Numbered from the stretch's first letter, positions 37,619 through 64,000 are shown. The stretch: 64,000 bases of DNA from Candidatus Anoxychlamydiales bacterium (GCA_011065125.1 JAAKFI010000001.1:25964-89963), one strand, 5' to 3'. Numbers and translations: made by a program. The notes: generated by a model not told the origin, from the sequence alone.

Positions 37619-37691
37619 CGAGTGCGGAGGGATTCGAACCCCCGACCGGCGACTTTGGAGATCGCTGCTCTACCATCTGAGCTACACACCC
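37619..37691 (-). tRNA. tRNA-Trp (anticodon CCA)
   Basis: Folded by hand. Acceptor GGGTGTG/CGCACTC, D arm GCTC-AGATGGTA-GAGC, anticodon stem GCGAT/GTCGC, loop CTCCAAA, T arm with TTCGAAT. Confidence 0.9.
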
Positions 37692-37726
37692 CATGACAAA
37701 TAAGTCATGACAAATCTTTTCTAAAA

Positions 37727-38911
37727 TTACTCAATAATTTTAGAAACAGTTCCTGCTCCAATAGTTCTACCACCCTCACGAATAGCAAATCTCATGCCTT
37801 CTTCCATAGCAACCGGAACCATTAGTTCTCCTGTTATTTCAACATTGTCACCAGGCATAACCATCTCTGTGCCTTCCGGAAGAGCTACAGTGCCCGTAAC
37901 ATCAGTTGTTCTAAAAAAGAACTGTGGTCGATAACCAGTAAAGAATGGTTTATGTCTTCCACCTTCTTCTTTTTTCAATACGTAAATTGCACCTTTAAAT
38001 TTCTTATGTGGTGTACATGCTCCAGGAGCAGCTAATACCATTCCTCTTTCAACGTCTTTTTTATCAACTCCTCTTAAAAGAACTCCAACGTTTTCACCAG
38101 CTCTAGCTTCATCTAAAAGCTTATTAAACATTTCAAGACCAGTAGCAACAGATTCTCTTGTCTCTCTAAGACCAACGATTTGTATTTTATCGTTGATTTT
38201 AATAATACCTCTTTCAACTCTTCCTGTAACAACTGTACCTCTACCTGAAATTGAGAATACATCCTCAATCGGCATAAGAAATGGTTTATCAACTTCTCTT
38301 GTAGGTACAGGTATTTTTTCATCAATTGTTTTCATTAATTCTTTTATGCTCTCAATGCTTTCAGCATCACCTTCCAATGCTTTTAAAGCTGACCCCTTAA
38401 CGATTGCAACATTATCATATCCCTTTTCAGCTAAAAGTTCTTGTAATTCCATTTCAACTAGTTCTACTAATTCTTCATCACCTTTTCCGATTTGATCCAT
38501 TTTGTTTAAGAATACAACGATTGAAGGAACTCCAACTTGTTTCGCTAAAAGTATATGTTCTTTTGTTTGAGGCATAGGTCCATCTGTTGCCGCAACAACT
38601 AAGATAGCCCCGTCCATTTGAGCCGCTCCTGTAATCATGTTTTTTACGTAGTCAGCGTGACCTGGACAGTCAACGTGAGCATAATGTCGTTTGTCTGTTT
38701 CATATTCAACGTGTGATGAATTGATTGTAATTCCACGTGATTTTTCTTCTGGAGTATTATCTATAGAAGAATAATCTCTATAAGTTCCACCACCTTCTTC
38801 AGCTAAAACCTTTGTAATAGCTGCCGTCAAAGTAGTTTTACCATGATCGACATGCCCGATTGTTCCAATATTTACGTGAGGTTTTGTCCTTTTAAATGCT
38901 TCTTTTGCCAT
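37727..38911 (-). CDS. tuf: elongation factor Tu
   Basis: 394 aa. [14 protein letters not shown] and NKMD GTPase motifs. Confidence 0.98.
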
Positions 38912-38962
38912 CCTATTGATCCTCCATAGTCAGCGGTATTAAATTAATTTGTTTAATTCCTT

Positions 38963-39034
38963 TGCCCAGAATAGGACTTGAACCTACGACCTTTTGCTTA
39001 CCATGCAAATGCTCTACCTCTGAGCTATCTGGGC
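38963..39034 (-). tRNA. tRNA-Thr (anticodon GGT)
   Basis: Folded by hand. Acceptor GCCCAGA/TCTGGGC, D arm GCTC/GAGC, anticodon stem TTTGC/GCAAA, loop ATGGTAA, T loop TTCAAGT. Confidence 0.9.
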
Positions 39035-49529: not shown

Positions 49530-49603
49530 GGGGCAGTAGCTCAGTTGGTTAGAGCATCGGACTCATAATCCGTTGGTCGCGGGTTCAAGTCCTGCCTGCC
49601 CCA
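49530..49603 (+). tRNA. tRNA-Met elongator type (anticodon CAT; lysidine-modified tRNA-Ile2 cannot be excluded)
   Basis: Folded by hand. Acceptor GGGGCAG/CTGCCCC, D arm GCTC-AGTTGGTTA-GAGC, anticodon loop CTCATAA, T arm GCGGG-TTCAAGT-CCTGC, discriminator A. The G1-C72 pair argues against an initiator tRNA. Confidence 0.9.
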
Positions 49604-49608
49604 TTTTT
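49562..49608 (+). repeat. attL-like direct repeat (3' half of tRNA-Met plus T-run)
   Basis: ctcataatccgttggtcgcgggttcaagtcctgcctgccccattttt recurs at 60349-60395 with 6 mismatches in 47 nt by my manual alignment. Confidence 0.8.
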
Positions 49609-49926: not shown

Positions 49927-52836
49927 TTAAAGACTTTGCATATCGACTAGATTTTTAAAAAAGGAATTTTTTTTATACAAAGTATCAAAATTCCCAAAAT
50001 CAACTATTTCTCCATTTATCATTAAATAAATTCTATCAGCATTTTTAATGGTATCTAATCTATGTGCTATAACAATTCTAGTTATTCTTAATTTATCAAT
50101 ATTTTCGCTTATTTCTTTTTGAAGAGAATTATCAAAAAAAGAGGTAGCTTCATCTAAAATCAAAATATTAGGCTTGGAAATTAAAGCTCTAGTTAATACA
50201 AGCTGTTGTTTTTGCCCCCCGGATAGATTTTTACCATTATCAGTTAAATAAGTTTGAAGTCCCATTGGAAAGCATTTTAAAGTTTCATCAAATTTTGTTA
50301 TTTTCATAACTCTTTCAATTTCTTGACTAGGTACTATTTTTGAAAAAATTAAATTTTCTTCAAGAGTTCCAGAAAAAACTTCACTTCCCTGAAGAACTAC
50401 ACCTAGCTGTTTTCTTACTTTTGTAATATCTAGATCATTTAAATTTTTACCATCAACAAATATTGAGCCAGAATTTGGCTTATAATAGTTAAGTAAAAGT
50501 CGAATTAATGTGGATTTGCCGCAGTTGGTCGGTCCGACTATTGCTATTAATTCACCAGGAGATGCTTTTATAGAGACATTTTTTAAAACTAAAGGAAGAT
50601 TTTCTTCATATCTAAAACTGACATTTTCAACATCCAAAAATCCTTTTATTATACCTGGGTCTAAAACTTCTTTTTTTCTCTCAAGTGGATAGGTTAATAT
50701 AATTTTAGATCTTTTCCATCTAGGAATTATCATGCCAATGTAACTTATTAGTGTTACAAATAAAGAATTCATGGCTGTTGCAAAAGCAGCAAAAGCTGCA
50801 TTGAATGCAATAAAATTACCCAGATTGAATTTATTTGTTTTTAATAGAAAAATAGCAAATGCAAATATAAAAAAGGTTCCCAGGGTTAAAAAAACAGCAT
50901 TTATTGAGCTTAAAAAAGATGCTAAATAATCAGATGAAAGGGTTTTAGATCTAATTTTAGAAAACCTACTGCCCCATTTTTCAAAAAGAATTTTTTCAGA
51001 AGAAGATAGTCTTATTTTTTCTATTCCTGATAAAATTTGAAGAATAAATCCATTTAGTTTTGATTGTTCATTTAATACATCTGTATCTATTTTGATTTTT
51101 ATTTTTAAAATAAAAATAAAAATAAATAAATAAACAGTTAAAAAAGCGAGATTAATTAAAGCAAGTTGCCAGCTATAAAAGAACATTTGAATAAAATATA
51201 GAAAGGAAAATATACCCATGAATAAAGAGCTTATAAATCCACTTGATAAGATTCTTTGAACTTCGAACATTTCAAAAAGTCTTTTTAGAAGATCTCCTTT
51301 TGTAAAATTTTTAAAAAATGAAATTGGAAGTCTTAAAAATCTATCAAACAGGCCTACTTGGAAACGAATCCTTATTTTTGATTGGATTCTTAATATTACA
51401 AATGAGCTAGTAAATGAAAAAAGAGCTGAAGATATTGCAGCTATAAAAAGACCAAAAGCAACTTGGTATAAAAGACCTTTTTCAAAATGGGGAATAATTA
51501 TATTAAATATCTTAGAATTTGCAAATGGTATATAAAATGCGAGCATTATAGAAATAAGGCTATAAAATATGAAATTGAAAACTTCTTTTGATTGGTTTTT
51601 TAAACAGAACTTTAATATTTTTTTGCCGTTTAGATTTTCATATCCAAATGTCTCATAAAATTCATAAGTTTCATTTTCAAGTAAATCTTTTGTGGTTTTA
51701 GTAATTTTTATTTTTGATTTTATATCAGGATCGATGATCTCATAATGTTTTTTATTTTTTATTATAGCTACAGGTTTTTTACCTTCTTTTAAAAAGCCTA
51801 AAAAATTAGAACTTTCTTTTTTATACCAAGTATTTTTTAATGTTACTTTTCTATAACGTACATTCGAATTTTCACATATTTCATAAATGATATTGTTTAT
51901 TTCTTTTTCATAAATTTTTTTAGAAATCTCAAAATGGATTTTTAAAGAATCCCCTACTACTTTTAAAGCATTAAAAAGTTTATCTTTTGTCTCAATTGGA
52001 ATTTCAATTGGCTTTTTTTCAAAAATATTAAAAAAAGAAACAAGTGTTTTGTTAATAAGATGTTTTTCAAGATCTTTTTTTTCAAAAATTCGATTTTTTT
52101 CATTTTTATTTTTTATTAACATTTGCTTGAAAAGATAATCTAAAATGATTTTATGAAAAAAATTGAGAATATTTTCAAAATTTTTATTTTTTATTACATT
52201 TTTTGTATCTAAAACATCTACTAAAATTTCATCTTTAAAAGAAAAAAAAGTTTTATAAGACATTGGAAAGATTTGATTTTCTTTAACAATCATTTTTTTT
52301 TCATTTAAAAAATTCATTGAACCTTTTTTTATTTCTATCCAGCGAATTTGGGTTTTATCTTTTAAGAAAAAATCTATCATTATATCTTTTTGATCTTTAG
52401 AGTAGAGTTTTGTTGGTTTATCAAAAAATAAAAAAGTATCTATCTCTTCTTTGAATATTATTATGAGATTTTCATATATGTTTACGATCCAACTGTTTAT
52501 TTTATTAGAAAAAGAATTTAAAAATTCTTCAGAGTTTAAATTTTTTAATATATCTTCAATGGATATTTCAAATATTTTACTATTATCTGATACTGCAGCA
52601 AAAATTTTAAGATCACTCGTTAAATTCTCAAAACTAAAAAAAATATTATCTTTTTCAATACTTGCTAAAAATGTTTTTCTAATGAATGTTTTATCTTTTT
52701 TTTCTTCAAAAAAGATATCGACACTTCCTTCTTCAACATAATATATTTTTTTTATGCTGCTCAAATCGATTTTTAAATTTTGTTGCTCTAAAAAGACTTC
52801 TTTTCCTATTTTTTTAAAATCATTTTGAGTTAACAT
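49927..52836 (-). CDS. NHLM/NHLP-type bacteriocin export ABC transporter permease/ATPase with N-terminal cNMP-binding-like domain
   Basis: 969 aa. The N-terminal ~340 aa are soluble with YYVEEGSVDIFF (cNMP-binding-like beta-roll). A six-TM ABC exporter domain follows, with Walker A GPTNCGKST, signature LSGGQKQQ and Walker B ILILDEATS. The gene starts immediately after the C39-ABC stop. Confidence 0.8.
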   Translation of the reverse strand: MLTQNDFKKIGKEVFLEQQNLKIDLSSIKKIYYVEEGSVDIFFEEKKDKTFIRKTFLASIEKDNIFFSFENLTSDLKIFAAVSDNSKIFEISIEDILKNLNSEEFLNSFSNKINSWIVNIYENLIIIFKEEIDTFLFFDKPTKLYSKDQKDIMIDFFLKDKTQIRWIEIKKGSMNFLNEKKMIVKENQIFPMSYKTFFSFKDEILVDVLDTKNVIKNKNFENILNFFHKIILDYLFKQMLIKNKNEKNRIFEKKDLEKHLINKTLVSFFNIFEKKPIEIPIETKDKLFNALKVVGDSLKIHFEISKKIYEKEINNIIYEICENSNVRYRKVTLKNTWYKKESSNFLGFLKEGKKPVAIIKNKKHYEIIDPDIKSKIKITKTTKDLLENETYEFYETFGYENLNGKKILKFCLKNQSKEVFNFIFYSLISIMLAFYIPFANSKIFNIIIPHFEKGLLYQVAFGLFIAAISSALFSFTSSFVILRIQSKIRIRFQVGLFDRFLRLPISFFKNFTKGDLLKRLFEMFEVQRILSSGFISSLFMGIFSFLYFIQMFFYSWQLALINLAFLTVYLFIFIFILKIKIKIDTDVLNEQSKLNGFILQILSGIEKIRLSSSEKILFEKWGSRFSKIRSKTLSSDYLASFLSSINAVFLTLGTFFIFAFAIFLLKTNKFNLGNFIAFNAAFAAFATAMNSLFVTLISYIGMIIPRWKRSKIILTYPLERKKEVLDPGIIKGFLDVENVSFRYEENLPLVLKNVSIKASPGELIAIVGPTNCGKSTLIRLLLNYYKPNSGSIFVDGKNLNDLDITKVRKQLGVVLQGSEVFSGTLEENLIFSKIVPSQEIERVMKITKFDETLKCFPMGLQTYLTDNGKNLSGGQKQQLVLTRALISKPNILILDEATSFFDNSLQKEISENIDKLRITRIVIAHRLDTIKNADRIYLMINGEIVDFGNFDTLYKKNSFFKNLVDMQSL

Positions 52837-55011
52837 TTATTTTAGTCCTTGATCTTTTACAAGTTTTTGATAGAGACCTTCTTTATGTTTTAAAGTCTCA
52901 TGATTTCCTCTTTGAATCACTTTTCCTTTTTCTAAAACTATTATTTCATCTGCATCTTTAATCGTGCTGAGTCTGTGAGCTACCATAATAAGAGTGCAAC
53001 CTCTTCTTTTTATGCTTTTTAAAATGTTATTTTCTGTTTGAGAATCAACACTTGATGTAGCTTCATCTAGTAATATTATTCTAGGGTTTTTAACTAAAGC
53101 TCTAGCTATTTCAACTCTTTGTTTTTGACCTCCACTCAAATTTCTACCTTCTTCATATATAGTAGCATTATAATTTAAATTTTGAGATATGATCTCATCA
53201 TGTATAGCAGCGTCTTTGGCAGCTTTGAAAATATTATTTTCTGAAATAGTGTGATCCCAAAGTGTAATGTTATCATTGTATGTTCCTTCAAATAAAAAGG
53301 AATTTTGATCAACAGAAGAAAGTGATCTTAAAAAAAGATCGCTATTAATATTACAGAATGGGATGTTGTCATATAGAATTTCTCCACTCCAAGGAGCATA
53401 AATTCCTTTTAATAAATTTAAAATTGTCGTTTTGCCAGATCCAATTAAACCTACAAAAGCAATTGATTGACCAGGAGTTAAACTGAAACTTAAATTTTCA
53501 ATATAAGGCTCTTTATTTTTATCGAATCCAAAAGATAGATTTTTTACTTCAATAAATCCTTCCAGATATGATTTATTTTTAGTCGTATCAGTATTTTTAA
53601 ATTCAAAAACTTGATCTTTTTTTTGATTTAGAACATCATCGATTCTATTTATATCAGATTTGCTTTCTTGCAGCATTTGACCTAAATTTATAAATCTTAT
53701 GAAGGGAATTAAAAAATTTAAAAGTAACATCTGAATTGCTAACATCATACCGATAGAAATTGTTCCATCCAATACCTTTAAAGTACCAATAAGTAAAAAA
53801 AATGAAATTGTTATTATTTGAAATATTTGTGGAAAAGAAGTTAAAAAAATGTCTTTTAAATTTATACTTTGTACACCAATAAGAGTTTTAGTAAAATATC
53901 CAGACCATCTAGCAAAAAAAACGGATTCTCCACCAGAAGCTTTGAGCGTTTCAATATTTGCAATCCCTCCAACTGTAATTCCTAGAATTTTTCCAAAATC
54001 CATTTGAAATCTGGCAAAATCATCACTTCTACTTCTATTGATGTATTTTAATAAAAAGAAGTTTAAGGCTACTGAGATTAAGGCTACTATTGCTATTTCA
54101 AAACTTAGTTGAATAATTACTAATAGATAAAAAATTACAAAAAACAAATTAACTATCGAAACTGCTAGCTGGGTTGTTAACATATATGTGATAAAATCAT
54201 TTAGATAAAGCCTGTTTGCTATTTCACCAGCATATCTCATTAAATAAAATTTAATTGGAAGTCTCAAAACATGTTTAAATAATTTTCCAGACCAGGAAAT
54301 TGAAGATTTAGCATTCAATTTAGCAAAAATATATCCTTGCAAAAAGTTCATTGATATTGAAAAAATAATTGTCAAAAAAAAGATAGAAAAGAAAAAAACT
54401 CTATTATAATTTATTTGAATTATTTGATCATAAAATATTTGTATTAAAACAGGAATTATAAGTCCTGGAAACACTAATAAAAAAGTTGCTATTATTGAAT
54501 ATGTAAGTGATTTTTTTACATTTTTAAATCTATTAAAAACAGATTCAAATAAACTAAACGGCCTTCCTGTTTTTTTAAATTTATCCGTCTTTTCAAATTC
54601 AATTGTAATACCAGTATAACTTTCATCAAATTCCTCAATGGATACTTTTCTAGGTCCTGATGCTGGATCATTTATATAAAAACCATTTCTATAATAACCT
54701 TCGAGTACTACAAAGTGATTAAATTTCCAGTAAATAATGCATGGAAATTTTAAAAAATTTAGTTCATTAATTTCTCTTTTATATCCATCAGCTTTTAAGC
54801 CTAATTTTGTAGCTCCATCAATAATTTGATAAGCATTGGATCCATCTCTTGTAATAGAACATAATTCTCTTAAATTCTCTAAGGATATAAATTTTTTAAA
54901 ATAAGCTAAAATAATCCCTAAGGCTACTGCACCACATTCAACTATTTCCATTTGAATAATAGTCGGTGTTTTAACTCTTTTTCTAAAAAATAATTTATTT
55001 ATAAATTTCAT
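52837..55011 (-). CDS. peptidase-C39-domain ABC transporter (PCAT; leader-cleaving exporter)
   Basis: 724 aa. N-terminal C39 domain with IQMEIVECGAVALGIIL (catalytic Cys26), NHFVVL (His) and INDP (Asp). TMD, then Walker A GLIGSGKTT, LSGGQKQRV and IILLDEATS. Confidence 0.88.
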   Translation of the reverse strand: MKFINKLFFRKRVKTPTIIQMEIVECGAVALGIILAYFKKFISLENLRELCSITRDGSNAYQIIDGATKLGLKADGYKREINELNFLKFPCIIYWKFNHFVVLEGYYRNGFYINDPASGPRKVSIEEFDESYTGITIEFEKTDKFKKTGRPFSLFESVFNRFKNVKKSLTYSIIATFLLVFPGLIIPVLIQIFYDQIIQINYNRVFFFSIFFLTIIFSISMNFLQGYIFAKLNAKSSISWSGKLFKHVLRLPIKFYLMRYAGEIANRLYLNDFITYMLTTQLAVSIVNLFFVIFYLLVIIQLSFEIAIVALISVALNFFLLKYINRSRSDDFARFQMDFGKILGITVGGIANIETLKASGGESVFFARWSGYFTKTLIGVQSINLKDIFLTSFPQIFQIITISFFLLIGTLKVLDGTISIGMMLAIQMLLLNFLIPFIRFINLGQMLQESKSDINRIDDVLNQKKDQVFEFKNTDTTKNKSYLEGFIEVKNLSFGFDKNKEPYIENLSFSLTPGQSIAFVGLIGSGKTTILNLLKGIYAPWSGEILYDNIPFCNINSDLFLRSLSSVDQNSFLFEGTYNDNITLWDHTISENNIFKAAKDAAIHDEIISQNLNYNATIYEEGRNLSGGQKQRVEIARALVKNPRIILLDEATSSVDSQTENNILKSIKRRGCTLIMVAHRLSTIKDADEIIVLEKGKVIQRGNHETLKHKEGLYQKLVKDQGLK

Positions 55012-55850
55012 AACTTTATTTTCTTTGAAAACCAGAATGGCAGTAAATAAGCTATAGGTTTTGTTTCAATCAATATAACATCTACATCAGATAAAGTTCC
55101 AAGAGGTATATCATCAGCTAAAGGAGGTTCAATTTTAGACTCTGCATATAAAGGATAAACAATAATGGGTATCACAGGACCGTCTTTAGTAAAATAATCA
55201 TAAAAACGTTTACCTAAAAGTATTTTGTTAAAATAAGTTTCATCAGCAGGAATATAGGATATTTTTTCCACTCTGCCATAAAATTGTTTTTTTTCATTAG
55301 GCTCTAATGCCCATGAAAAGATTTTTACTTTCATATTGTTTCGTATTTTATCACCTTCTTTAAAAGGAATGAAACAATAGAATTTCTCATGGTTGCTTTT
55401 GAAATAGTTGTTAGATTTTTGTAATTCTATCAATATCTGATTTTTTAATGCTGTATCTCCATTATTTAGATAGATATTAGTGATTAGACCATCATAAGGA
55501 GATTTTATATTAATTTTTTCATTTGTTTGTAGATCTTGTATAACAGCTACTATATCATCCTTTTTGACCTTTGATCCAATAAATTCTTTTACATCAACTA
55601 TGCCTTTAGAAGGTGAAACAATAGATTCTATTTTTGAAAAATCTAAGAAAATACCCTTTCCATCTGCAATAGTTGTTATTTTCCCCAAAAAAGCCCATGA
55701 TATAATTGAAATTATAATAATAATCCCAACAATTAAAGCTATCCAATCTTTTGGTTTAACAATGATTAAGAGTTTATCTAACTCTTCTAATGAAGATATA
55801 TTTTCAAGTGCTTTTTTTCTGAATATTGATTTTTTTTCTTCCTTAATCAT
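55008..55850 (-). CDS. HlyD-family / NHLM bacteriocin-system secretion adaptor protein (short form)
   Basis: 280 aa. N-terminus FRKKALENISSLEELDKLLIIVKPKDWIALIVG plus a single TM, followed by a lipoyl/barrel-sandwich-like SPSKGIVDV...GSKVKKDDIVAVI. 4-nt overlap with the C39-ABC gene. Confidence 0.75.
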   Translation of the reverse strand: MIKEEKKSIFRKKALENISSLEELDKLLIIVKPKDWIALIVGIIIIISIISWAFLGKITTIADGKGIFLDFSKIESIVSPSKGIVDVKEFIGSKVKKDDIVAVIQDLQTNEKINIKSPYDGLITNIYLNNGDTALKNQILIELQKSNNYFKSNHEKFYCFIPFKEGDKIRNNMKVKIFSWALEPNEKKQFYGRVEKISYIPADETYFNKILLGKRFYDYFTKDGPVIPIIVYPLYAESKIEPPLADDIPLGTLSDVDVILIETKPIAYLLPFWFSKKIKL

Positions 55851-56036
55851 AATTACCAGCCTAATTTCTTTAATATAATAATACTACTAATTAATTAGCA
55901 AGTATTTGAATAATTAATAGAATCTTTACTATATATGTAGATTTGTGTAGTTTTTTAGAAGCGATGAAAAAAAATTAGAAATTTATATTTTGATGAAATC
56001 AGAAAGAGGATCTCATGAAATAAAATCTGAATTTAG

Positions 56037-56109
56037 GTGAGTAGAGCGATGGCCCCCCCCCCTCAGCCTCTTGCAGAACCGTACGTGAGACTTTCGTCTC
56101 GTACGACTC
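56037..56109 (-). mobile_element. group II intron 3' remnant (domain V plus domain VI)
   Basis: Minus strand 56109-56076 reads GAGTCGTACGAGAC-GAAA-GTCTC-AC-GTACGGTTC. That is a 34-nt hairpin with a 9-bp lower helix, AC bulge, 5-bp upper helix and GAAA tetraloop, matching the domain V consensus except that the triad reads AGT rather than AGC. It is followed by a D6-like ...GCTCTACTCAC. No room exists for a full intron before the upstream gene at 56270. Confidence 0.65.
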
Positions 56110-56269
56110 CCATCAAGCAAATACACCTATCAAGTTTTAAACAAGATTTCTTTTTTTGATGACCTAAAAAAAAAGAACATGACTAATTTCACAGCTAAAG
56201 CTATAGGCATACGCCGTTTTCTTTTTCGCTCAGATACATTCTTTTTAATAATATATTGTTTAGAATTTG

Positions 56270-57244
56270 TTAATTTTTTTTAGCAATGTATACTTGCCAT
56301 CCTAAAACATCATTTATACCTACTTTAAAAATAGGAAAAAATGTATTAATAACTTTAAAACCAATTTTTTTCAAATCAGATGAATTTATCAATGACATAG
56401 TTTTACAAATTAAAATAATGTAGCCATTGAGATTTAAAAAATTATAGGCATTTTTTAAAAATTCAATGGCATTTTGGTGTTCTATTACGCCCTTTGCAAT
56501 CATTCCAGATCCAATGATTACATCTACTTTATCATCAAAAAAAATAGACTTTGAAATATCTTTATATTCAATTATTGCATTTTTATAATCCTTTAGTCTT
56601 ATTTTTATTTCATCCAAAATATTTTTGTTATCATACATATAATCCCATAGATAATAATTGGATATTTTGTCAGAAAAAGAGTTCAAAATCATTTTGGCTA
56701 AAAGACCATTTCCAGAGCCTATTTCTAAAATTTTATTTTTATTTTTTTTTTGTAAAATTAACTTCATTATTTCATAAAAAAAAGGATGAATAAAATTTTC
56801 ATAAATAGTGCGTAAATTAGGCTTAAAATAATCAAGCCAGTATTCTTTTTGTTTTAATGCAAAATTACTTTGAGAGTGGCTTTCTATCTCATTGCCATTT
56901 AAAAAATAAGATAATTTTGCAAGATTGTCTGTAATAGATTCAATTGTTTTTCTATCGGTAATAAAATACCTATTTTTTCCTTCGTCAATGACCAGATCTT
57001 TTTCCCAATAAAATTTATTTTCATGAAGAGAAATAAAATGAACTTTAAAAGATATATTTTTAAAATTAATAAAATAATTTATGTCTGAAAAACTATGTTT
57101 TATCTTAGCTTTATCAAAAGCTATATTAGATTTTTTTGCATCAGATAATATTTGATCAATAATTTTAAAAATTTCAGATGCATTAGCTTTTTTTTTGGGT
57201 TGAATTACTAGTTCATCAGAGATTTGAATATCAAATTTCAGCAT
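56270..57244 (-). CDS. class I SAM-dependent methyltransferase with unassigned ~140-aa N-terminal domain
   Basis: 324 aa. Motif I KILEIGSGNGLLA at residues 171-183. Its start overlaps the rSAM gene end by 14 nt. Confidence 0.8.
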   Translation of the reverse strand: MLKFDIQISDELVIQPKKKANASEIFKIIDQILSDAKKSNIAFDKAKIKHSFSDINYFINFKNISFKVHFISLHENKFYWEKDLVIDEGKNRYFITDRKTIESITDNLAKLSYFLNGNEIESHSQSNFALKQKEYWLDYFKPNLRTIYENFIHPFFYEIMKLILQKKNKNKILEIGSGNGLLAKMILNSFSDKISNYYLWDYMYDNKNILDEIKIRLKDYKNAIIEYKDISKSIFFDDKVDVIIGSGMIAKGVIEHQNAIEFLKNAYNFLNLNGYIILICKTMSLINSSDLKKIGFKVINTFFPIFKVGINDVLGWQVYIAKKN

Positions 57245-58661
57245 TAAAAACCTCGGAACCTTTTTTGATAAGTTGTTCTATTTGATAGTTTTTTATTTGA
57301 TTAGCAAATAAATCTCTTCTAAATAAATTATGTACTTTTTCAGAGTCATTAAAGGAAAAAATTAACCAGGAGAGCTCCTCATCTGTTACAATCAATTTAT
57401 TTTCGCTTAAATACTTATTAGGATCTAATAAAAAAAAATCTATATTTTTTTTTGAATTATAAATATTTAAATAAGCTTTTTGAAATGTTTTTTCTTTAAA
57501 AATATATTTTGTTTTATCAAAAAGATTATATTTTGATGATATAAAATCCCATTCTTGTTGAAAGTTTGTATTTAAATCTGGTTCTTTTCTTTCTATCTTT
57601 TTTAGATTAACTTTTCTTTTAATTTTGTCGATAAAACAAAAAGGATTTTCTGCAAAAGGATCCTTAGTATTTGCAAAAACTTTTGATGGACAGCCTCGAC
57701 AAACAGTATAAAAATGGCAATTTCCACATGCAGCATAATATTTAGCTCTTCTTAATTTTTTTAAGTAAATATTACCTAAAAAAACCTCTTCAAAACTTTG
57801 CTGAGGTAATTTACCTATGTTAATAGGAAGAAGTTTACAAGCATAGGCTCCACCATCAGGTCCTATTTGAGGAGGAGTAAATCCTGTAGAACATCCTAAT
57901 AGAAAATCAGGGTTCGGTATTGGTAAATATTTTCCTCTTTCAAAGAGTATAAGTTTTAATAAATGGGCATCATGATTAAATCTTAATTTGCAATTTTGTT
58001 TTTGAAGTTCATCTTTTGTATCAAGATATTTGGATAAAATTTCATAAAGTTCATCGGGAGTAAATGAAGTTAAGTTTTTTCTAGCATTTCCAATAGCACA
58101 TCCAACTGCAAACGAAAATTTTTCCAATTTTGTATCTTTTGCTAAAAATTTAATTAGTGGAATAAAAGAGTCTTTATTTGACGGATAAAGTGTAAATCTA
58201 ACTGATGATGCGAATCCAAAATCATTTATTAAATTAAGTGCATTAAGAGTATTTTTAAAACTTCCTTTTCTTCTGGTAAGATCATGATCTTTTTCTAATC
58301 CATCTAAACTTAATTGAATTTCTTTAACATTAAAATCTTTTAATTTTTTTAAATTTTTTTCAGTTAAAGATTCAGGATTTGCCAAGACTCTGATATTATC
58401 ACTTTTTTTTTGTAGTTCTTGAAAAAATTCTTCCCAATCTTTTCTGAGTAGTGGATCTCCACCTGTTATATTAAAATCAGACATCTTTACATTATATTTT
58501 TTTTCAAAGTCTTCAATTTGATCAAGGATCTTTACTAAATCTCTTATAGGAAGAGCATTTTTTCTTTCATTTTCATAAATAGAATCTTCATGCATATAAC
58601 AATGTTTACAGTTATTATTACAACTAGTTGTTATGCTCATGAGAATTCTAAATTTAAACAT
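57231..58661 (-). CDS. radical SAM enzyme with SPASM-like auxiliary cluster domain (RiPP maturase candidate)
   Basis: 476 aa. CX3CX2C at C14/C18/C21 (SCNNNCKHC) and a GGDPLL SAM-binding motif. C-terminal Cys set C257, C275, then C312-x2-C315-x5-C321-x2-C324 and C342. About 134 further residues are unassigned. Confidence 0.85.
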   Translation of the reverse strand: MFKFRILMSITTSCNNNCKHCYMHEDSIYENERKNALPIRDLVKILDQIEDFEKKYNVKMSDFNITGGDPLLRKDWEEFFQELQKKSDNIRVLANPESLTEKNLKKLKDFNVKEIQLSLDGLEKDHDLTRRKGSFKNTLNALNLINDFGFASSVRFTLYPSNKDSFIPLIKFLAKDTKLEKFSFAVGCAIGNARKNLTSFTPDELYEILSKYLDTKDELQKQNCKLRFNHDAHLLKLILFERGKYLPIPNPDFLLGCSTGFTPPQIGPDGGAYACKLLPINIGKLPQQSFEEVFLGNIYLKKLRRAKYYAACGNCHFYTVCRGCPSKVFANTKDPFAENPFCFIDKIKRKVNLKKIERKEPDLNTNFQQEWDFISSKYNLFDKTKYIFKEKTFQKAYLNIYNSKKNIDFFLLDPNKYLSENKLIVTDEELSWLIFSFNDSEKVHNLFRRDLFANQIKNYQIEQLIKKGSEVFNAEI

Positions 58662-58864
58662 AAATATCTCCTTTTTCAGATCATTTTTATTTTTTAAGCT
58701 CTATCCTAATATTTAATCTAAAAATTTTATATTATTTTTTTTTCTTATAAGAAAATAAAATTATTTTAACCTTGGATTAACATATTTTTTAAATTGGCAG
58801 CAATCATCCAACAATTAAATTGATTGGTTTTCGATGCCTATTTTACTTTTAAAAGAATTTTAAT

Positions 58865-59056
58865 TTATAGCTGAGCTGCAGCTACATCATCAAAACCGCC
58901 AGCTAATTCTTTTAATTCTTCATGAGATATTTTTTTACCTGAGGATTGATTCAAAACTGCCATCATATTTAGGGTAGCTGCAATTGCTCTTTTTCTATTT
59001 TCTTCATTTTTTAGACCCCATTCTAAAAATTCTTTCCAATTTTTTTTTTGATCCAT
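58865..59056 (-). CDS. RiPP precursor peptide A2 (Nif11/NHLP-like leader, double-glycine, 9-aa core FDDVAAAQL)
   Basis: 63 aa: MDQKKNWKEFLEWGLKNEENRKRAIAATLNMMAVLNQSSGKKISHEELKELAGG-FDDVAAAQL. AGGAAA RBS-like sequence 5 nt upstream. Sits directly upstream of the rSAM gene. Confidence 0.8.
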   Translation of the reverse strand: MDQKKNWKEFLEWGLKNEENRKRAIAATLNMMAVLNQSSGKKISHEELKELAGGFDDVAAAQL

Positions 59057-59144
59057 ATTGTTTCCTTTTTTTTAGGGTTTAAGATATTATAAATTAATAA
59101 TGTAATAAATTTAGCCTGTCAATTAAATATTTTTAAATTGAATT

Positions 59145-59345
59145 CTAGAGTTTAAATTCCAATTCATCAAAACTGTCAGCTACTTTGTTTAATTCTTCAC
59201 TAGATATTTTTTCATCTGGGGAACGATACAAAATTGCCAACATTTTTAAGCCAGCTGCCATAGCTCTTTTTCTATTTTCTTCATTTTTTAAACCCCACTC
59301 TAAGAATTCTTCCCAAGATTGTTTTGGATTCATATTTTTCTCCAT
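59145..59345 (-). CDS. RiPP precursor peptide A1 (paralogous leader, no GG, 8-aa C-terminal segment FDELEFKL)
   Basis: 66-aa ORF. It probably starts at the internal ATG at 59333 (GGAG 8 nt upstream), giving a 62-aa product that aligns gap-free with A2. The block EFLEWGLKNEENRKRA is identical in both. Confidence 0.75.
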   Translation of the reverse strand: MEKNMNPKQSWEEFLEWGLKNEENRKRAMAAGLKMLAILYRSPDEKISSEELNKVADSFDELEFKL

Positions 59346-59453: not shown

Positions 59454-59666
59454 TTAAGCGGGAATTGCTCTAGCATTTCGAGTCTTATTTTCCCTATTCC
59501 ACAAGACAATGCCCTGTCTTTTTATGTTTCTAGCAGCGTTTTTATCTCTCATTATTGTTTTTTTGCAATGAGGACAAATCCATATTCTATCTTTCAGAGT
59601 TAAATCTTCATTTATGTTGTTGCAGTGATAACAAGTTTCTCTAAGTTGATATTTTTTCTTTGCCAA
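59454..59666 (-). pseudogene. tnpB: TnpB (IS605 OrfB) C-terminal fragment
   Basis: ETCYHCNNINEDLTLKDRIWICPHCKKTIMRDKNAARNIKRQG matches the TnpB zinc-ribbon/RuvC-III end (CxxC...L.dR.w.CxxC...RD.NAA.NI). Only about 70 aa are present, against about 400 aa for an intact protein. Confidence 0.75.
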
Positions 59667-60009
59667 TACATTTTCAAAGCTTCTAAAACAATATCCATCC
59701 CAATCTTATTTCGAAATTTGATACAATCAATTAAAGTCTTTTCAATATCAAAAAATTTAACAATAATGCCGCCTATTTTATGCACATAGACTCCCGTAGT
59801 CAAAAGTTTTTCTGAATACCAAAAAAACGCATTGGAGGATAAGAAATAACAGGTTTATGAGCATCTTTAGGTAATGCCACATAAACAAAATGTGGAATTT
59901 GGGTTGTGATTTCATGGAAAGATATTTTTTCAATCGTTGTAATATATGAAACTAAACACTGATTACTACATATGAAATCAAAATTAATAAAAGAATTAAA
60001 TTTTTGCAT
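59612..60009 (-). pseudogene. AbiEi-family (type IV TA antitoxin) gene, frameshifted and 3'-truncated by the IS fragment
   Basis: Two abutting ORFs. The first has ...FHEITTQIPHFVYVALPKDAHKPVISYPPMRFF. The second has ...IVKFFDIEKTLIDCIKFRNKIGMDIVLEALKMY. Both match conserved AbiEi blocks (hgLTtQiP...v.lp; ErTliDc.ryrnk.G.d.alEAl). The frame switches at about 59800-59803, and the reading frame then runs into tnpB-derived sequence. Confidence 0.6.
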
Positions 60010-60348: not shown

Positions 60349-60395
60349 CTCATAATCCGTCGGTCACAGGTTCAAGTCCTCTTTGCCCCATTTTT
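60349..60395 (+). repeat. attR-like direct repeat (displaced, diverged 3' half of tRNA-Met)
   Basis: ctcataatccgtcggtcacaggttcaagtcctctttgccccattttt. No matching tRNA 5' half lies upstream, so this is a fragment and not a second tRNA gene. Confidence 0.8.
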
Positions 60396-60481: not shown

Positions 60482-61153
60482 TTAATTAAAATACTTAAAA
60501 CAATTCCCCCCAAAAATACCTAAAGGAATTATAGACAAAGCTCTAAAAAAAGCAGTTCCCTGCGCTTCTATGCCATGCACAGCAAATTTAGCTAAAGTCG
60601 CATCTAAAATACCACCAACTAAAGGTAAGGCCAGACCATAACCAATAGCAGCAACAACTAATCCAGCAAAACTCATCGCAGTAGCCATCACCCTTGGTCT
60701 GTTATTTTCTCCAATTATAGGATAACCAATCACTTGGGCTGCAGAACTAAAACCAAGTAGAAAAAAGAGTAAATATAAAAGACAATATGACAAATGCGGT
60801 GTATATAAAATAACCAGCATAAAAAATAAGCAACAAAAAGCACCTAAAATCATCGGCGGTTTTCTTCTTCGTATTTTATCAGAAATCCAAGCAAAAATAG
60901 GTGCACCGATAATATAGCCGATAAAAAGCATGGAAGTAACCCCTGCTGCTTGTAGATTAGTTAAATGATGCACTTTAGCTAGATAAGAAATGCCAAAAAG
61001 AGCACCCAATACTGAAATCGGCAGGTTAAGAAAACAGATATAAAAACTGCCTAACCAATTTTGTTTTTGTTTTATAATTTCTTTGAGCCCGTCCCAGACC
61101 GAAAGCTTTAGAGCTCTTTTTAAATTTTTTTCTTCATTTAAAAAATTTAATTT
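60482..61153 (-). pseudogene. 5'-truncated MFS transporter gene (C-terminal six-helix half only)
   Basis: The ORF-track protein (175 aa) has MFS C-domain features (ISDKIRRRKPPM loop). The frame stays open upstream to 61153 with no plausible start, and the N-terminal half is absent before the next gene at 61237. Confidence 0.6.
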
Positions 61154-61236: not shown

Positions 61237-64000
61237 TTATTCCAGAGGTAAGAATTTTTTCTTTTTAGCTGAAAAATAAATTTTTTCAAAAACTTCATAA
61301 CTTGAAAGCGTATCATTGTTTATATATTTTCTATATGATTCACAATCTAATATTATATAACTTTTCCAATGTCTATATGGAAAATAATTTATATCTTGAA
61401 GTCTATATAATATCTCAAAATTATCAATAAATGATGGTTTTTGCAGTGCAATAATAATCGGTGCAATAATAATTGGTTCTTTATAAAATATTGTAAAAGG
61501 AGATCCTCCTAAACTAGAATAAAAGTAGGTACTCCATATTTCTGTAGAAGAATTTACAAATAAAGTTCCTGGTATAAAGGTGGTATTATTTAAAGTTGCG
61601 CTGGACCCTATTTTATTATTTCCTCTTAATGCAGTAAATATTCTAAGGGAACCACCACCATTTCTTCCAACAGTTGACGAGGAAAATATTTTAAAAGCTC
61701 CATCCCCCAAATTTGGAAAAGTTGGAAAATCATTATCTACTACTAAAGTTAAATTTCCAAAGCCATTGTTTATTATTCTACTATGATCATTTAAAATAAT
61801 ATCTTTTCCTGCTTTTATGGTTAAATCATTTGTAGTATTGTTTATTTCAGTAGTATTAGATAAAGATCCTAAAAGAGAAATATTATTTCCCGCTTCTATA
61901 TTTGTTGTTGACGCCCCAGATATAAAAGATTGATTGGCATTTGATGAAGTTATAGAAATATCATTGGAAGCTGTGATATTTAATACACCTATATTTGTTT
62001 GTACATATCCACCATCAGAAATATTTAGATTAGCATTTAAATTTATTGTTGTAGCTGCACTAGATGTATTTAATATTTCGGAAGAAAGATTATTTATTGT
62101 ATCAGCTGTTATGTTCATAATACCGTTTGTTTTTATACTACACATTTTCGAAGCTGCCCCTAACAAATTTATTGTGCTATCGGAATTTATTGTCATGGTA
62201 TCTACTCCAACAATAGTTGCAATATCATTAGTTCCGGAAAAAAGAGAAGCATTTCCATTTAATGTAAGATTAAGATCATAGCCAGATGTATTTGGAAGCC
62301 CAGTTGTTATAATAACTTGATCTCCTGCATTTGAATTCATTAAAAGCTCATCATTTACTGTTACATTGATATTACAAAGAGCCGTTGGGCTATTAGTATT
62401 TACACTTAATGTTCCTATCAATACATCTGCAACATTTCCTGAAGTTCCTGTTAAATTTCCAATCATAGATAAGTCATTTGTAGCTTCAACATTCACTGAA
62501 CTTATTTTAAAGTCAGCGGTATTTGTTGCTCCTGTTATTCGACTCATAAGACCTCCAATAAAAGCAGTAGAATTTCTAGCTCCTGCCATAGAAATAGAGT
62601 CGTTTGCTTTTACTTTTACAATTGATGTAGAATCCACTATTAAAACTTCATTGACAGGGGGAACTCCCCCTAAGGTTACATACGATCCATGAAAGCCAAT
62701 TCCTACTACATTATTAGAAACATCTCCTGCAGAAAGATTATCATTTCCTGTCATTGTAATATTATTTGCTTCAATATTGATTTCACCTTGAAAAGTTATA
62801 GATTGATTAGTCCAAGCTCCACCATGGCCTATCAATGCAAAATTATTATTAGTATTTTTGCTCTCAAGAGATAAATTTCTTGTAATTACACCCGCTATAT
62901 TAGAAGAAGCTCCTCTAATATCACCTGTTATTGTTTGGGTTGATGTAGAACCTCTTTGCCTTAGATGCCCAATTAAAGCAAAGTCATTCGAACTACTTGA
63001 ACTAGCTTGCAATATGGCATCTCTTCCGACAGAATGAATAATAATATTACCGGTATAATTTCCGTTCATAACAACCGCTCCTATGCCAATATGAGCATAG
63101 GTAGTAGCAGCTGTTCCAGCAAGCATCTTTAAGTCTCTTCCTACTGTTAATTCTATATTCGTATTCGGATTTCCTGTTTGATTCCAACCAATAATTGCAG
63201 GAGTAGAAGCCAAACTTCCTCCTTGTAAAATTAAATCTTGATTTGCATTTACAGCTATTGTTCCGCTGAATGTTCCAATTATACTTTCAACAGAACCTGT
63301 GGTGCTAAGAAGTTCAATATTATTAGTTCTTGAAAAAGCTGAAATATTTCCTGAAGTATCATTTAGAATTCTACGCTTAACATTCAGAAGATTATTAGCA
63401 TCTAAAGTTAATTGACTTGATCTTGTCGAAATATTACTTATTGCATTGATATCACCCGCAGCTCCTGTTGTTTGAAAAAGAACAGTACCTGTTAAGCCAC
63501 TTGTAAATGTTAAAGGCTCATTAATTTCAATATTATTAAAAGCAATATAGCTTGCATTCGTAGCATTTTTTACTTCATAGAAATTAGCAGTAGAGGTAAA
63601 TGTTAAAGCTCCGGCTGTTGTTTTTAGAAGTACTATATCAGAGCTCTCTATGTCTAATCCATCAGTTAATGTGAGATCACCTACTGATTCAATAGAAAAA
63701 CTTCCTGTTTGAGTGCTATTAACTAATGATGAATTACTTTCCAAAATAAAAGTTCCAGATGAATTAATATCCACAGTATCAACATCTGTTAAAGTAAATT
63801 TTCTAAGTTGAATATTCCCAATTGAAGTAGTTATATTTAAATTACTAGCATCATCAATAGTGATAGTACCATTACGAACGCTTGAAAGTCGTTCAAAAAT
63901 TATATTTCCTGTAGTAGATGTTATGTTAATTTCATCTACATTTGTCATTACAAAAGGACGCTTAAAATGAACATCATCCACAGCTTGGAGGGTTAATGTT
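61237..64000 (-). CDS. large repetitive beta-helix-like surface protein (adhesin / FHA- or Pmp-like), N-terminus beyond window
   Basis: The frame is open from 64000 with no upstream stop, and the track start at 63981 is only an internal GTG. More than 900 aa are rich in N/S/T/G/I, with degenerate periodic motifs (..NITASNDISITSSN.., FALIGH recurring). Confidence 0.6.
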   Translation of the reverse strand, partial: TLTLQAVDDVHFKRPFVMTNVDEINITSTTGNIIFERLSSVRNGTITIDDASNLNITTSIGNIQLRKFTLTDVDTVDINSSGTFILESNSSLVNSTQTGSFSIESVGDLTLTDGLDIESSDIVLLKTTAGALTFTSTANFYEVKNATNASYIAFNNIEINEPLTFTSGLTGTVLFQTTGAAGDINAISNISTRSSQLTLDANNLLNVKRRILNDTSGNISAFSRTNNIELLSTTGSVESIIGTFSGTIAVNANQDLILQGGSLASTPAIIGWNQTGNPNTNIELTVGRDLKMLAGTAATTYAHIGIGAVVMNGNYTGNIIIHSVGRDAILQASSSSSNDFALIGHLRQRGSTSTQTITGDIRGASSNIAGVITRNLSLESKNTNNNFALIGHGGAWTNQSITFQGEINIEANNITMTGNDNLSAGDVSNNVVGIGFHGSYVTLGGVPPVNEVLIVDSTSIVKVKANDSISMAGARNSTAFIGGLMSRITGATNTADFKISSVNVEATNDLSMIGNLTGTSGNVADVLIGTLSVNTNSPTALCNINVTVNDELLMNSNAGDQVIITTGLPNTSGYDLNLTLNGNASLFSGTNDIATIVGVDTMTINSDSTINLLGAASKMCSIKTNGIMNITADTINNLSSEILNTSSAATTINLNANLNISDGGYVQTNIGVLNITASNDISITSSNANQSFISGASTTNIEAGNNISLLGSLSNTTEINNTTNDLTIKAGKDIILNDHSRIINNGFGNLTLVVDNDFPTFPNLGDGAFKIFSSSTVGRNGGGSLRIFTALRGNNKIGSSATLNNTTFIPGTLFVNSSTEIWSTYFYSSLGGSPFTIFYKEPIIIAPIIIALQKPSFIDNFEILYRLQDINYFPYRHWKSYIILDCESYRKYINNDTLSSYEVFEKIYFSAKKKKFLPLE

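Follow-up and report, generated by a model that had tools for sequence, protein, structure and literature searches.

Does a chlamydia-like bacterium with a small genome encode a working pathway for a peptide that is made on ribosomes and modified after translation (a RiPP), and what chemistry would such a pathway perform on a precursor that has no cysteine? This question is raised by seven genes at positions 49927-59345 of a 64,000-nt stretch of DNA from Candidatus Anoxychlamydiales bacterium (GCA_011065125.1, JAAKFI010000001.1:25964-89963), which was analyzed at its full length and is called the window here. The genes encode two small peptides, a radical S-adenosylmethionine (rSAM) enzyme of the SPASM type, a class I S-adenosylmethionine (SAM) methyltransferase (MTase), and three components of an exporter. 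Judged from its genes, this is a real RiPP cluster that is probably functional. The explanation that we favor, and in which we place fairly good confidence, is a functional pathway residing on a decayed island at a tRNA-Met gene, in which a leader peptide guides rSAM modification, methylation, cleavage by a C39 peptidase, and export of the product.

A preliminary description of this DNA had reported seven co-oriented genes on the minus strand, and all seven open reading frames (ORFs) were recovered where it had placed them; each of the seven is whole, and the 9.4 kb that they occupy is free of frameshifts, in keeping with its view that the genes are intact. The rSAM and MTase genes share 14 nt and lie directly downstream of the two peptide genes. 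No other precursor-like gene was found within the window, and no significant hairpin or attenuator was detected between pepB and the rSAM gene (z = -0.5). A scan for promoter-like sites gave 60, compared with 71 in shuffled sequence; it is uninformative, because the DNA is AT-rich and yields fewer sites than its shuffled counterpart.

The peptide genes form a 176-nt direct repeat with 82% identity. The main precursor gene, pepB (58865..59056, minus strand), is an ORF of 63 aa, while its paralogue, pepA (59145..59345, minus strand), encodes 66 aa when read from its first ATG. The start of pepA is probably the second ATG, at 59333, giving 62 aa, because a GGAG lies just upstream of it, the orthologues at two related loci (L008 and L092; labels of this form denote loci outside the window) begin MNPKQ, and the ENA gene call is also 62 aa. 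As had been predicted, the peptides are paralogues with acidic cores of 8-9 residues, and cysteine is absent from both leader and core of each. The leader of pepB ends ISHEELKELAGG (…ELKELAGG|FDDVAAAQL), that is, in a Gly-Gly followed by the nine-residue core FDDVAAAQL. The leader of pepA ends …ISSEELNKVADS (…VADS|FDELEFKL), with the putative core FDELEFKL; of the two window peptides only pepB has the Gly-Gly site. More generally, leaders of the pepB type end I-S-x-E-E-L-x-x-L-A-G-G, which we take to be the classic double-glycine pattern, and those of the pepA type keep the leader helix with D-S or E-G replacing G-G.

When pepA and pepB are set beside their orthologues of the L008 and L002 type, a family of five peptides results, in which the leader is nearly invariant. 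The pepB orthologues have the cores FDDIAAAQL (L008, P0122) and FDDIVGTYL (L002), and the pepA orthologue in L008 ends …LAEG|FDKLGFKF. All five cores therefore begin with an invariant Phe at position 1 and Asp at position 2, have Val, Ile, or Leu at position 4, and finish with Leu or Phe. An aromatic-X-X motif, F-D-[D/E/K], opens the core in 5/5, and a second, F-K-[L/F], is present in the pepA type. None of the five has a cysteine in leader or core. The family is small: among 5.8 billion clustered proteins, pepB has 1 relative other than itself.

The leaders had been assigned to the Nif11 and nitrile hydratase leader peptide (NHLP) types, and this label did not survive a profile search: TIGR03798, TIGR03793, and PF07862 gave zero matches to the five family peptides even at E<=10. 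Peptides from L022 and L023 served as positive controls for TIGR03793 and scored 79.8 and 69.2 bits (cut-off 50.9). A profile-profile alignment (hhalign) of the window leaders with the Nif11-type peptides that neighbor related enzymes has a sensible register, at a probability of 23%. The label is right by context, not by sequence, since homologues of the rSAM enzyme adjoin bona fide NHLP or Nif11 precursors.

The arrangement seen in the window is repeated on three independent contigs. L002 has a peptide, an rSAM enzyme (71% identical), and an MTase (56% identical), with no exporter beside the MTase. L008 has two peptides followed by the rSAM gene (a fragment, 91% identical). L092, the sole additional locus found when the JGI metagenomes were searched with the leader alignment, is truncated and contains the beginning of a gene of the pepA type. 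(Visual inspection of L092 at ~1140-1215, some 130 nt upstream of that gene, suggested a tRNA-like 3' part with a long variable arm; it was called by neither ARAGORN nor Rfam and is not relied on.) Comparison with two independent relatives by the Nei-Gojobori method indicates purifying selection on every gene tested (peptides, rSAM, and MTase), with ratios of nonsynonymous to synonymous substitution (dN/dS) of 0.08-0.35. The ratio is 0.08-0.24 for pepB, 0.14-0.22 for the rSAM gene, 0.33 for the MTase gene, and 0.35 for pepA versus L008, so that pepA evolves faster than pepB.

The rSAM/SPASM enzyme (57231..58661, minus strand; 476 aa) has the expected cluster ligands. The CX3CX2C motif at residues 14-21 is present (C14/C18/C21), as is the predicted set of seven C-terminal, SPASM-like cysteines (257, 275, 312, 315, 321, 324, and 342), each retained by 31 or more of the 33 family members; a set of this kind serves two auxiliary clusters. 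The protein matches PF04055 with 83 bits and PF13186 with 22.8 bits (cut-off 21.5). Its best NCBIfam match is TIGR04340 of the ACGX system (188 bits, cut-off 400); TIGR04082 (SbtM) follows with 138 bits (cut-off 350), and a second tier includes AhbD (104 bits) and NirJ2 (98 bits), all far under cut-off. The NCBI record names the protein as the mycofactocin maturase MftC. This name was rejected: the score against TIGR03962 is 58.6 bits versus a cut-off of 265, and the precursors here end in Leu or Phe. An AlphaFold2 model of the enzyme (pLDDT 91.6) consists of a SPASM core and an eight-helix C-terminal domain, the all-helical extension covering about residues 367-475. The nearest solved folds are SkfB, SuiB, anSME, ChlB, TigE, and PqqE (16-18% identity); these nearest structures are peptide maturases with differing chemistries. 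The modeled fold confirms the class of enzyme, not its reaction.

More than 1,200 proteins match the rSAM enzyme, and the full-length family, of ~470 aa with the helical C-terminal extension, extends well beyond this genome. It is spread over many phyla of anaerobes. It is present in at least four other chlamydial metagenome-assembled genomes (MAGs), those of Parachlamydiales, Chlamydiales, Anoxychlamydiales KR126_chlam_5, and Anoxychlamydiales K940_chlam_1, and outside Chlamydiota in Halanaerobiales, Fuchsiella, Chloroflexia, Syntrophobacteraceae, Acidobacteriota, Desulfobacteraceae, Ignavibacteriales, and Cloacimonadota. At least 12 of the more distant homologues, from other phyla and the four chlamydial MAGs, adjoin leader-bearing peptides, and the neighboring peptides (L012-L028, L003, L006) have Cys-rich cores in which CxC motifs abound. 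Against the NHLP model the peptides of L022 and L023 score above threshold, as do those of L003 and L026 against the Nif11 model; the others are sub-threshold. In L023 the order is NHLP peptide, rSAM, C39-ABC (38% identical to that of the window), and a second ABC gene, and in L055 and L051 it is rSAM, HlyD-like, ABC1, ABC2. Because the same orders recur at these loci, the general design of the cluster is that described by Haft et al. 2010 (PMC2887384). Scores of the Cys-associated members likewise all stay under the NCBIfam cut-offs, the nearest named models for the family being TIGR04340 and TIGR04082, and a literature search found no description of the window cluster or of the rSAM family, which is accordingly regarded as uncharacterized. 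At L019 3640-6683 and L020 4622-7668 (Halanaerobiales, Fuchsiella), a second rSAM gene precedes the family rSAM gene, which is followed by a 94-aa NHLP-clan peptide ending …SSDCDSCCNGGQPDGxCSECFAACCQ.

Given such neighbors, the window cluster might be expected to make a thioether peptide (a sactipeptide or ranthipeptide), as its relatives may, and the best PDB match of the enzyme, SkfB, does form thioethers. This possibility is very improbable. No cysteine is present in any of the five clade precursors, and no further precursor-like gene in the window could supply one. In addition, the enzyme itself has diverged: the rSAM proteins of the window and L002 carry M155R, D185A, E230H, K231D, R277L, and other replacements at positions where the other 31 sequences, the Cys-associated members, show 85-100% conservation. 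In a neighbor-joining tree, which is rough though consistent with the identity values, these two enzymes share a long branch, whose sister group includes the other chlamydial members. By its sequence, then, a thioether product is effectively refuted, and the replaced residues, the Cys-free substrate, and the gain of an MTase together point to a changed reaction.

The MTase (56270..57244, minus strand; 324 aa) contains the ILEIGSGNG motif that had been noted, and the 14-nt overlap with the rSAM gene was likewise found as described. It consists of an N-terminal domain of ~125 residues, to which no function is assigned, followed by a class I SAM domain, and it is specific to this clade. Its profile matches in NCBIfam and Pfam are to generic methyltransferases, under or near cut-off; the best of them, to the carboxyl methyltransferase BioC, is weak (E 2.5e-6) and cannot be taken as a sign of specificity. 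Among the 5.8 billion clustered proteins it has 2 relatives other than itself (89% and 56% identity), a full hidden Markov model scan of 1.84 billion representatives gave 197 weak relatives, and a search of the JGI metagenomes with the MTase alignment gave no match. A model of the protein (pLDDT 69.7) returned only generic class I methyltransferases from Foldseek (NNMT, TehB, Rv2258c), and so offers no clue to the methyl acceptor. The best distant relatives (L093, L094-L096) are stand-alone proteins of ~320 aa whose alignment takes in most of the MTase, with the N-terminal domain partly included; Pfam assigns them generic methyltransferase domains only, and their genes adjoin those for aminoacyl-tRNA synthetase or rpoB-rpoC rather than RiPP genes. 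This hints that the RiPP MTase was recruited from a family of housekeeping methyltransferases.

The housekeeping surroundings of these MTase relatives also bear on another explanation, in which the peptides are exported essentially unmodified, like class II bacteriocins or peptide pheromones, and the rSAM enzyme and MTase have a substrate other than a peptide, for instance a tetrapyrrole or a cofactor. The heme and heme-d1 enzymes in the second tier of rSAM matches, far under cut-off as they are, would fit with this, as would a group II intron remnant that splits the cluster between the MTase gene and the export genes. We consider it unlikely all the same. The adjacency of peptide and rSAM enzyme is kept at more than 12 loci in many phyla, genuine NHLP and Nif11 precursors included; L002 holds peptide, rSAM enzyme, and MTase together where the exporter is missing; the nearest solved folds of the rSAM enzyme belong to peptide maturases; and the overlapping rSAM and MTase genes come directly after those for the peptides. 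This conserved adjacency suggests that the two enzymes act on the peptides.

Downstream of the modification genes are those of the exporter: a short HlyD-like membrane-fusion adaptor (55008..55850, minus strand; 280 aa), an ABC exporter with C39 peptidase, permease, and ATPase domains (52837..55011, minus strand; 724 aa), and a second ABC exporter subunit, ABC2 (49927..52836, minus strand; 969 aa). The preliminary description had recognized these as the export trio of nitrile hydratase leader microcins (NHLM). The assignment stands for the C39-ABC protein, which passes TIGR03796 over its full length (861.8 bits, cut-off 853.3); the best matches of the other two are the expected families, at scores under cut-off. 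ABC2 has TIGR03797 as its best match by far (674.2 bits, cut-off 709.4), with residues 285-967 covering profile positions 2-685/686. The adaptor has TIGR03794 as its top-scoring family (105.1 bits, cut-off 156.2); the best stretch is to profile positions 2-99 of 421, and the protein is ~140 residues shorter than the profile. It also has a Biotin_lipoyl-like match, and the sequence FRKKALENISSLEELD is present as claimed. In the C39 domain (PF03412, 121 bits) the catalytic residues are intact, as had been predicted, Q20/C26/H99/D115 being read from the sequence. A cyclic nucleotide-binding-like domain had been proposed for the N terminus of ABC2; residues 1-284 have no Pfam or PDB sequence match, of that type or any other, and the proposal was dropped. 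By its family matches the exporter is of the NHLM type.

From these components a pathway can be proposed. pepB, and perhaps pepA too, would be translated as a leader of ~54 residues joined to a Cys-free acidic core of 8-9 residues, and the conserved leader would recruit the rSAM/SPASM enzyme. This enzyme would take a hydrogen atom from the core and modify it at or near the invariant N-terminal Phe-Asp motif. By analogy with the triceptides, our best guess for this step is an intramolecular crosslink in which the Phe ring is joined by a C-C bond to a side-chain carbon of residue i+2. Formation of cyclophanes between Phe(i) and C-beta(i+2) by rSAM/SPASM enzymes is documented, with crosslinks from Phe or Trp onto Asn, Asp, and Ser (PMC11002830). 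The main alternative for the step would be epimerization of the conserved Val, Ile, or Leu at position 4. The MTase would then add a methyl group, and the acidic core suggests that the product may be an O-methyl ester, either on an Asp or Glu side chain or on the C-terminal carboxylate. Finally, the C39 domain of the first ABC protein would cut after Gly-Gly, and the two ABC proteins together with the short HlyD-like adaptor would export the product. A more far-reaching proposal is that the rSAM enzyme of this clade has given up Cys-based chemistry for a new radical reaction on a Cys-free Phe-Asp-X motif (for example, a Phe-to-Asp or Phe-to-Glu C-C crosslink) and that, with carboxyl or amino methylation by the orphan MTase, the cluster defines a new RiPP class, whose secreted product would act on the host or on competitors. 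We consider this proposal possible, though less likely than not.

Several observations count against the pathway that we favor, in whole or in part. With regard to chemistry, the rSAM enzyme is not close to any characterized enzyme, its named matches being far under cut-off, and neither 3-CyFE nor other known cyclophane-forming families are among its 25 best NCBIfam matches. The Cys-rich cores of its relatives say nothing direct about reactions on a Cys-free core. The MTase gives no signal of specificity by profile or fold, and its distant relatives lie outside RiPP loci. With regard to precursors and export, the leader models fail to match any of the five peptides, pepA has no Gly-Gly, the adaptor is short and under cut-off, and no outer-membrane component or immunity gene is visible in the cluster. 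Finally, the group II intron remnant marks a seam between modification and export genes, and L002 has no exporter at the corresponding position.

This seam is located where 419 nt separate the MTase gene from the adaptor gene. The remnant comprises domains V-VI of the intron (56036..56111, minus strand; Rfam RF00029, 45.9 bits vs a gathering score of 40, E 5e-8); an entire intron would not fit into the gap. Its position, together with the absence of an exporter beside the L002 MTase, suggests that modification and export genes may not be obligately linked, and the two modules may have been joined secondarily.

The borders of the region are formed by tRNA sequences. On one side is a tRNA-Met (CAT) gene (49530..49603, plus strand; ARAGORN; Rfam 73.5 bits), and on the other is a partial direct copy of its 3' half (60349..60395, plus strand), in which 41/47 bases are identical (87%). 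The repeat pairs 49562-49608 with 60349-60395 on the same strand, 10,787 bp apart, and there are only two copies in the window, which bracket the whole cluster in the manner of att sites. Differences in the T stem are partly compensatory, as expected if the copies stem from different functional tRNA genes. Between the repeats no integrase-like ORF was found. The base composition of the island is not atypical: its GC content is 0.22-0.27 across the cluster, the same as in the flanks, and this agreement with the rest of the genome argues that the island is not a recent, unselected arrival. From its sequence, the region reads as an old, immobilized island that was inserted at tRNA-Met and carries the cluster.

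Near the pepA end of the island are fragments of other genes. A remnant of a TnpB-type transposon protein (TnpB/Cas12f-like; 59454..59666, minus strand) retains only the zinc-ribbon end (PF07282, 36 bits, cut-off 26.3); in an independent ENA assembly of this organism (L001) a contig ends there, which suggests that the stump is a repeated element. It is accompanied by a fragment of an AbiEi-type antitoxin gene (59612..59803, minus strand), with 74% identity over 57 aa to a PF13338 AbiEi_4 gene of L003. The L003 gene (11935-12549) lies, with AbiEii, directly after a homologous rSAM gene and its Nif11 peptide; the window and L003 RiPP loci have mobile/defense-island neighbors in common. A truncated gene for a major facilitator superfamily (MFS) transporter (60482-61009, minus strand) covers the N-terminal half of the Pfam profile only and ends just outside the partial tRNA copy; insertion of the island may have cut it. 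A relationship between this gene and the intact MFS gene on the other side was considered, and the two are unrelated.

Such debris would be expected if the genome were shrinking and the cluster were itself a decaying, nonfunctional remainder of an island gained by horizontal transfer. The absence of an integrase, the TnpB, AbiEi, and intron stumps, and the truncated MFS gene at the edge are all compatible with decay, as are the ~140 residues missing from the adaptor and a pepA that lacks Gly-Gly and evolves faster than pepB. The cluster genes, however, do not share the condition of their surroundings: seven intact ORFs span 9.4 kb without a frameshift, the catalytic Cys, His, and Asp and the Fe-S ligands are all in place, dN/dS is well under 1 versus two independent relatives, and GC content is that of the rest of the genome. 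Decay of the cluster is therefore an improbable explanation, and a functional pathway on a decayed island is preferred.

Two other features of the window are mentioned for orientation. A 914-aa ORF (61237-63981, minus strand) is repetitive and rich in Ser, Thr, Asn, and Gly; it was considered as a chlamydial polymorphic membrane protein (Pmp), which was not confirmed, since it has no Pfam match at E<=1e-5. The EF-Tu gene (37619-39034), a landmark of the core genome that borders the island region, lies between tRNA-Trp and tRNA-Thr genes in an ordinary conserved arrangement.

The host is chlamydial, as had been deduced: the rSAM, MTase, and pepB proteins are 100% identical to Candidatus Anoxychlamydiales proteins (K1060chlam5_00073, K1060chlam5_00075). 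If the pathway is active, no earlier one for an rSAM-modified peptide would have been defined in Anoxychlamydiales, here with a genome of ~1.4 Mb, and reduced genomes would still spend ~0.7% of their DNA on a secreted modified peptide. Uncharacterized rSAM-RiPP clusters number in the thousands; with only three genes (for a 63-aa precursor, an rSAM enzyme, and an MTase), this one is a compact test case for natural-product chemistry of a radical reaction that may be new and that would take place on a Cys-free core. Anoxychlamydiales K1060_chlam_5 is a marine-sediment MAG of 1.39 Mb and 26.4% GC (PMC9666466 supplement). The preliminary description was not aware of RiPP clusters in this phylum, a view that is outdated, since they have been reported across Chlamydiae: many chlamydiae carry RiPP-like, lanthipeptide, lasso peptide, linaridin, or thiopeptide clusters, and for some the top MIBiG match is polytheonamide, which is NHLP-type (PMC9666466). 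RiPP clusters in Chlamydiae are already known, and the lineage, an unusual host for RiPP genes, has precedents. The antiSMASH survey table lists zero biosynthetic gene clusters for K1060_chlam_5 (Dharamshi et al. 2022, PMC9666466), so the window cluster was missed, and the published survey overlooked at least one RiPP cluster in the phylum. The novelty lies in the family of precursors, in the MTase, and in the chemistry that seems likely; the architecture is of a known kind.

How does the window cluster compare with known systems? It resembles the NHLP/Nif11 microcin systems (Haft et al. 2010, PMC2887384) in having the same three exporter parts in the same order, with a C39-ABC protein that passes its cut-off, and a long leader ending in Gly-Gly; moreover, its rSAM homologues lie beside true NHLP/Nif11 precursors, in L023 beside the same two ABC genes. 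It differs in that the NHLP/Nif11 models miss its leaders, its adaptor is truncated and under cut-off, and ABC2 is just under cut-off; in addition, it uses an rSAM enzyme and an MTase, whereas PMC2887384 describes cyclodehydratase or LanM enzymes. With the chlamydial RiPP-like clusters (PMC9666466) it has the phylum and broad category in common, but rSAM/SPASM plus MTase is not among the types tabulated there. Like the triceptides (3-CyFE), it pairs an enzyme of the rSAM/SPASM class with cores that open aromatic-X-X (F-D-D, F-D-E, or F-D-K, together with F-K-L or F-K-F in the pepA type); unlike them, its rSAM enzyme has no specific sequence relationship to the known 3-CyFE families, there are one or two motifs per core in place of the repeats that characterize many triceptide precursors, and the crosslink is hypothetical. 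The CxC-associated rSAM/SPASM family of ~470 aa shares with the window enzyme 30-43% full-length identity, which includes the helical C-terminal extension, the same Fe-S ligands, the lack of an N-terminal RiPP recognition element (RRE) domain, and a position directly beside a leader-bearing peptide. From this family the window clade is set apart by its Cys-free cores, its added MTase, its long branch in the tree, and its replaced near-invariant residues. The sister enzymes that are found with CxC cores offer a natural comparison for a change of substrate and chemistry within the rSAM/SPASM enzymes.

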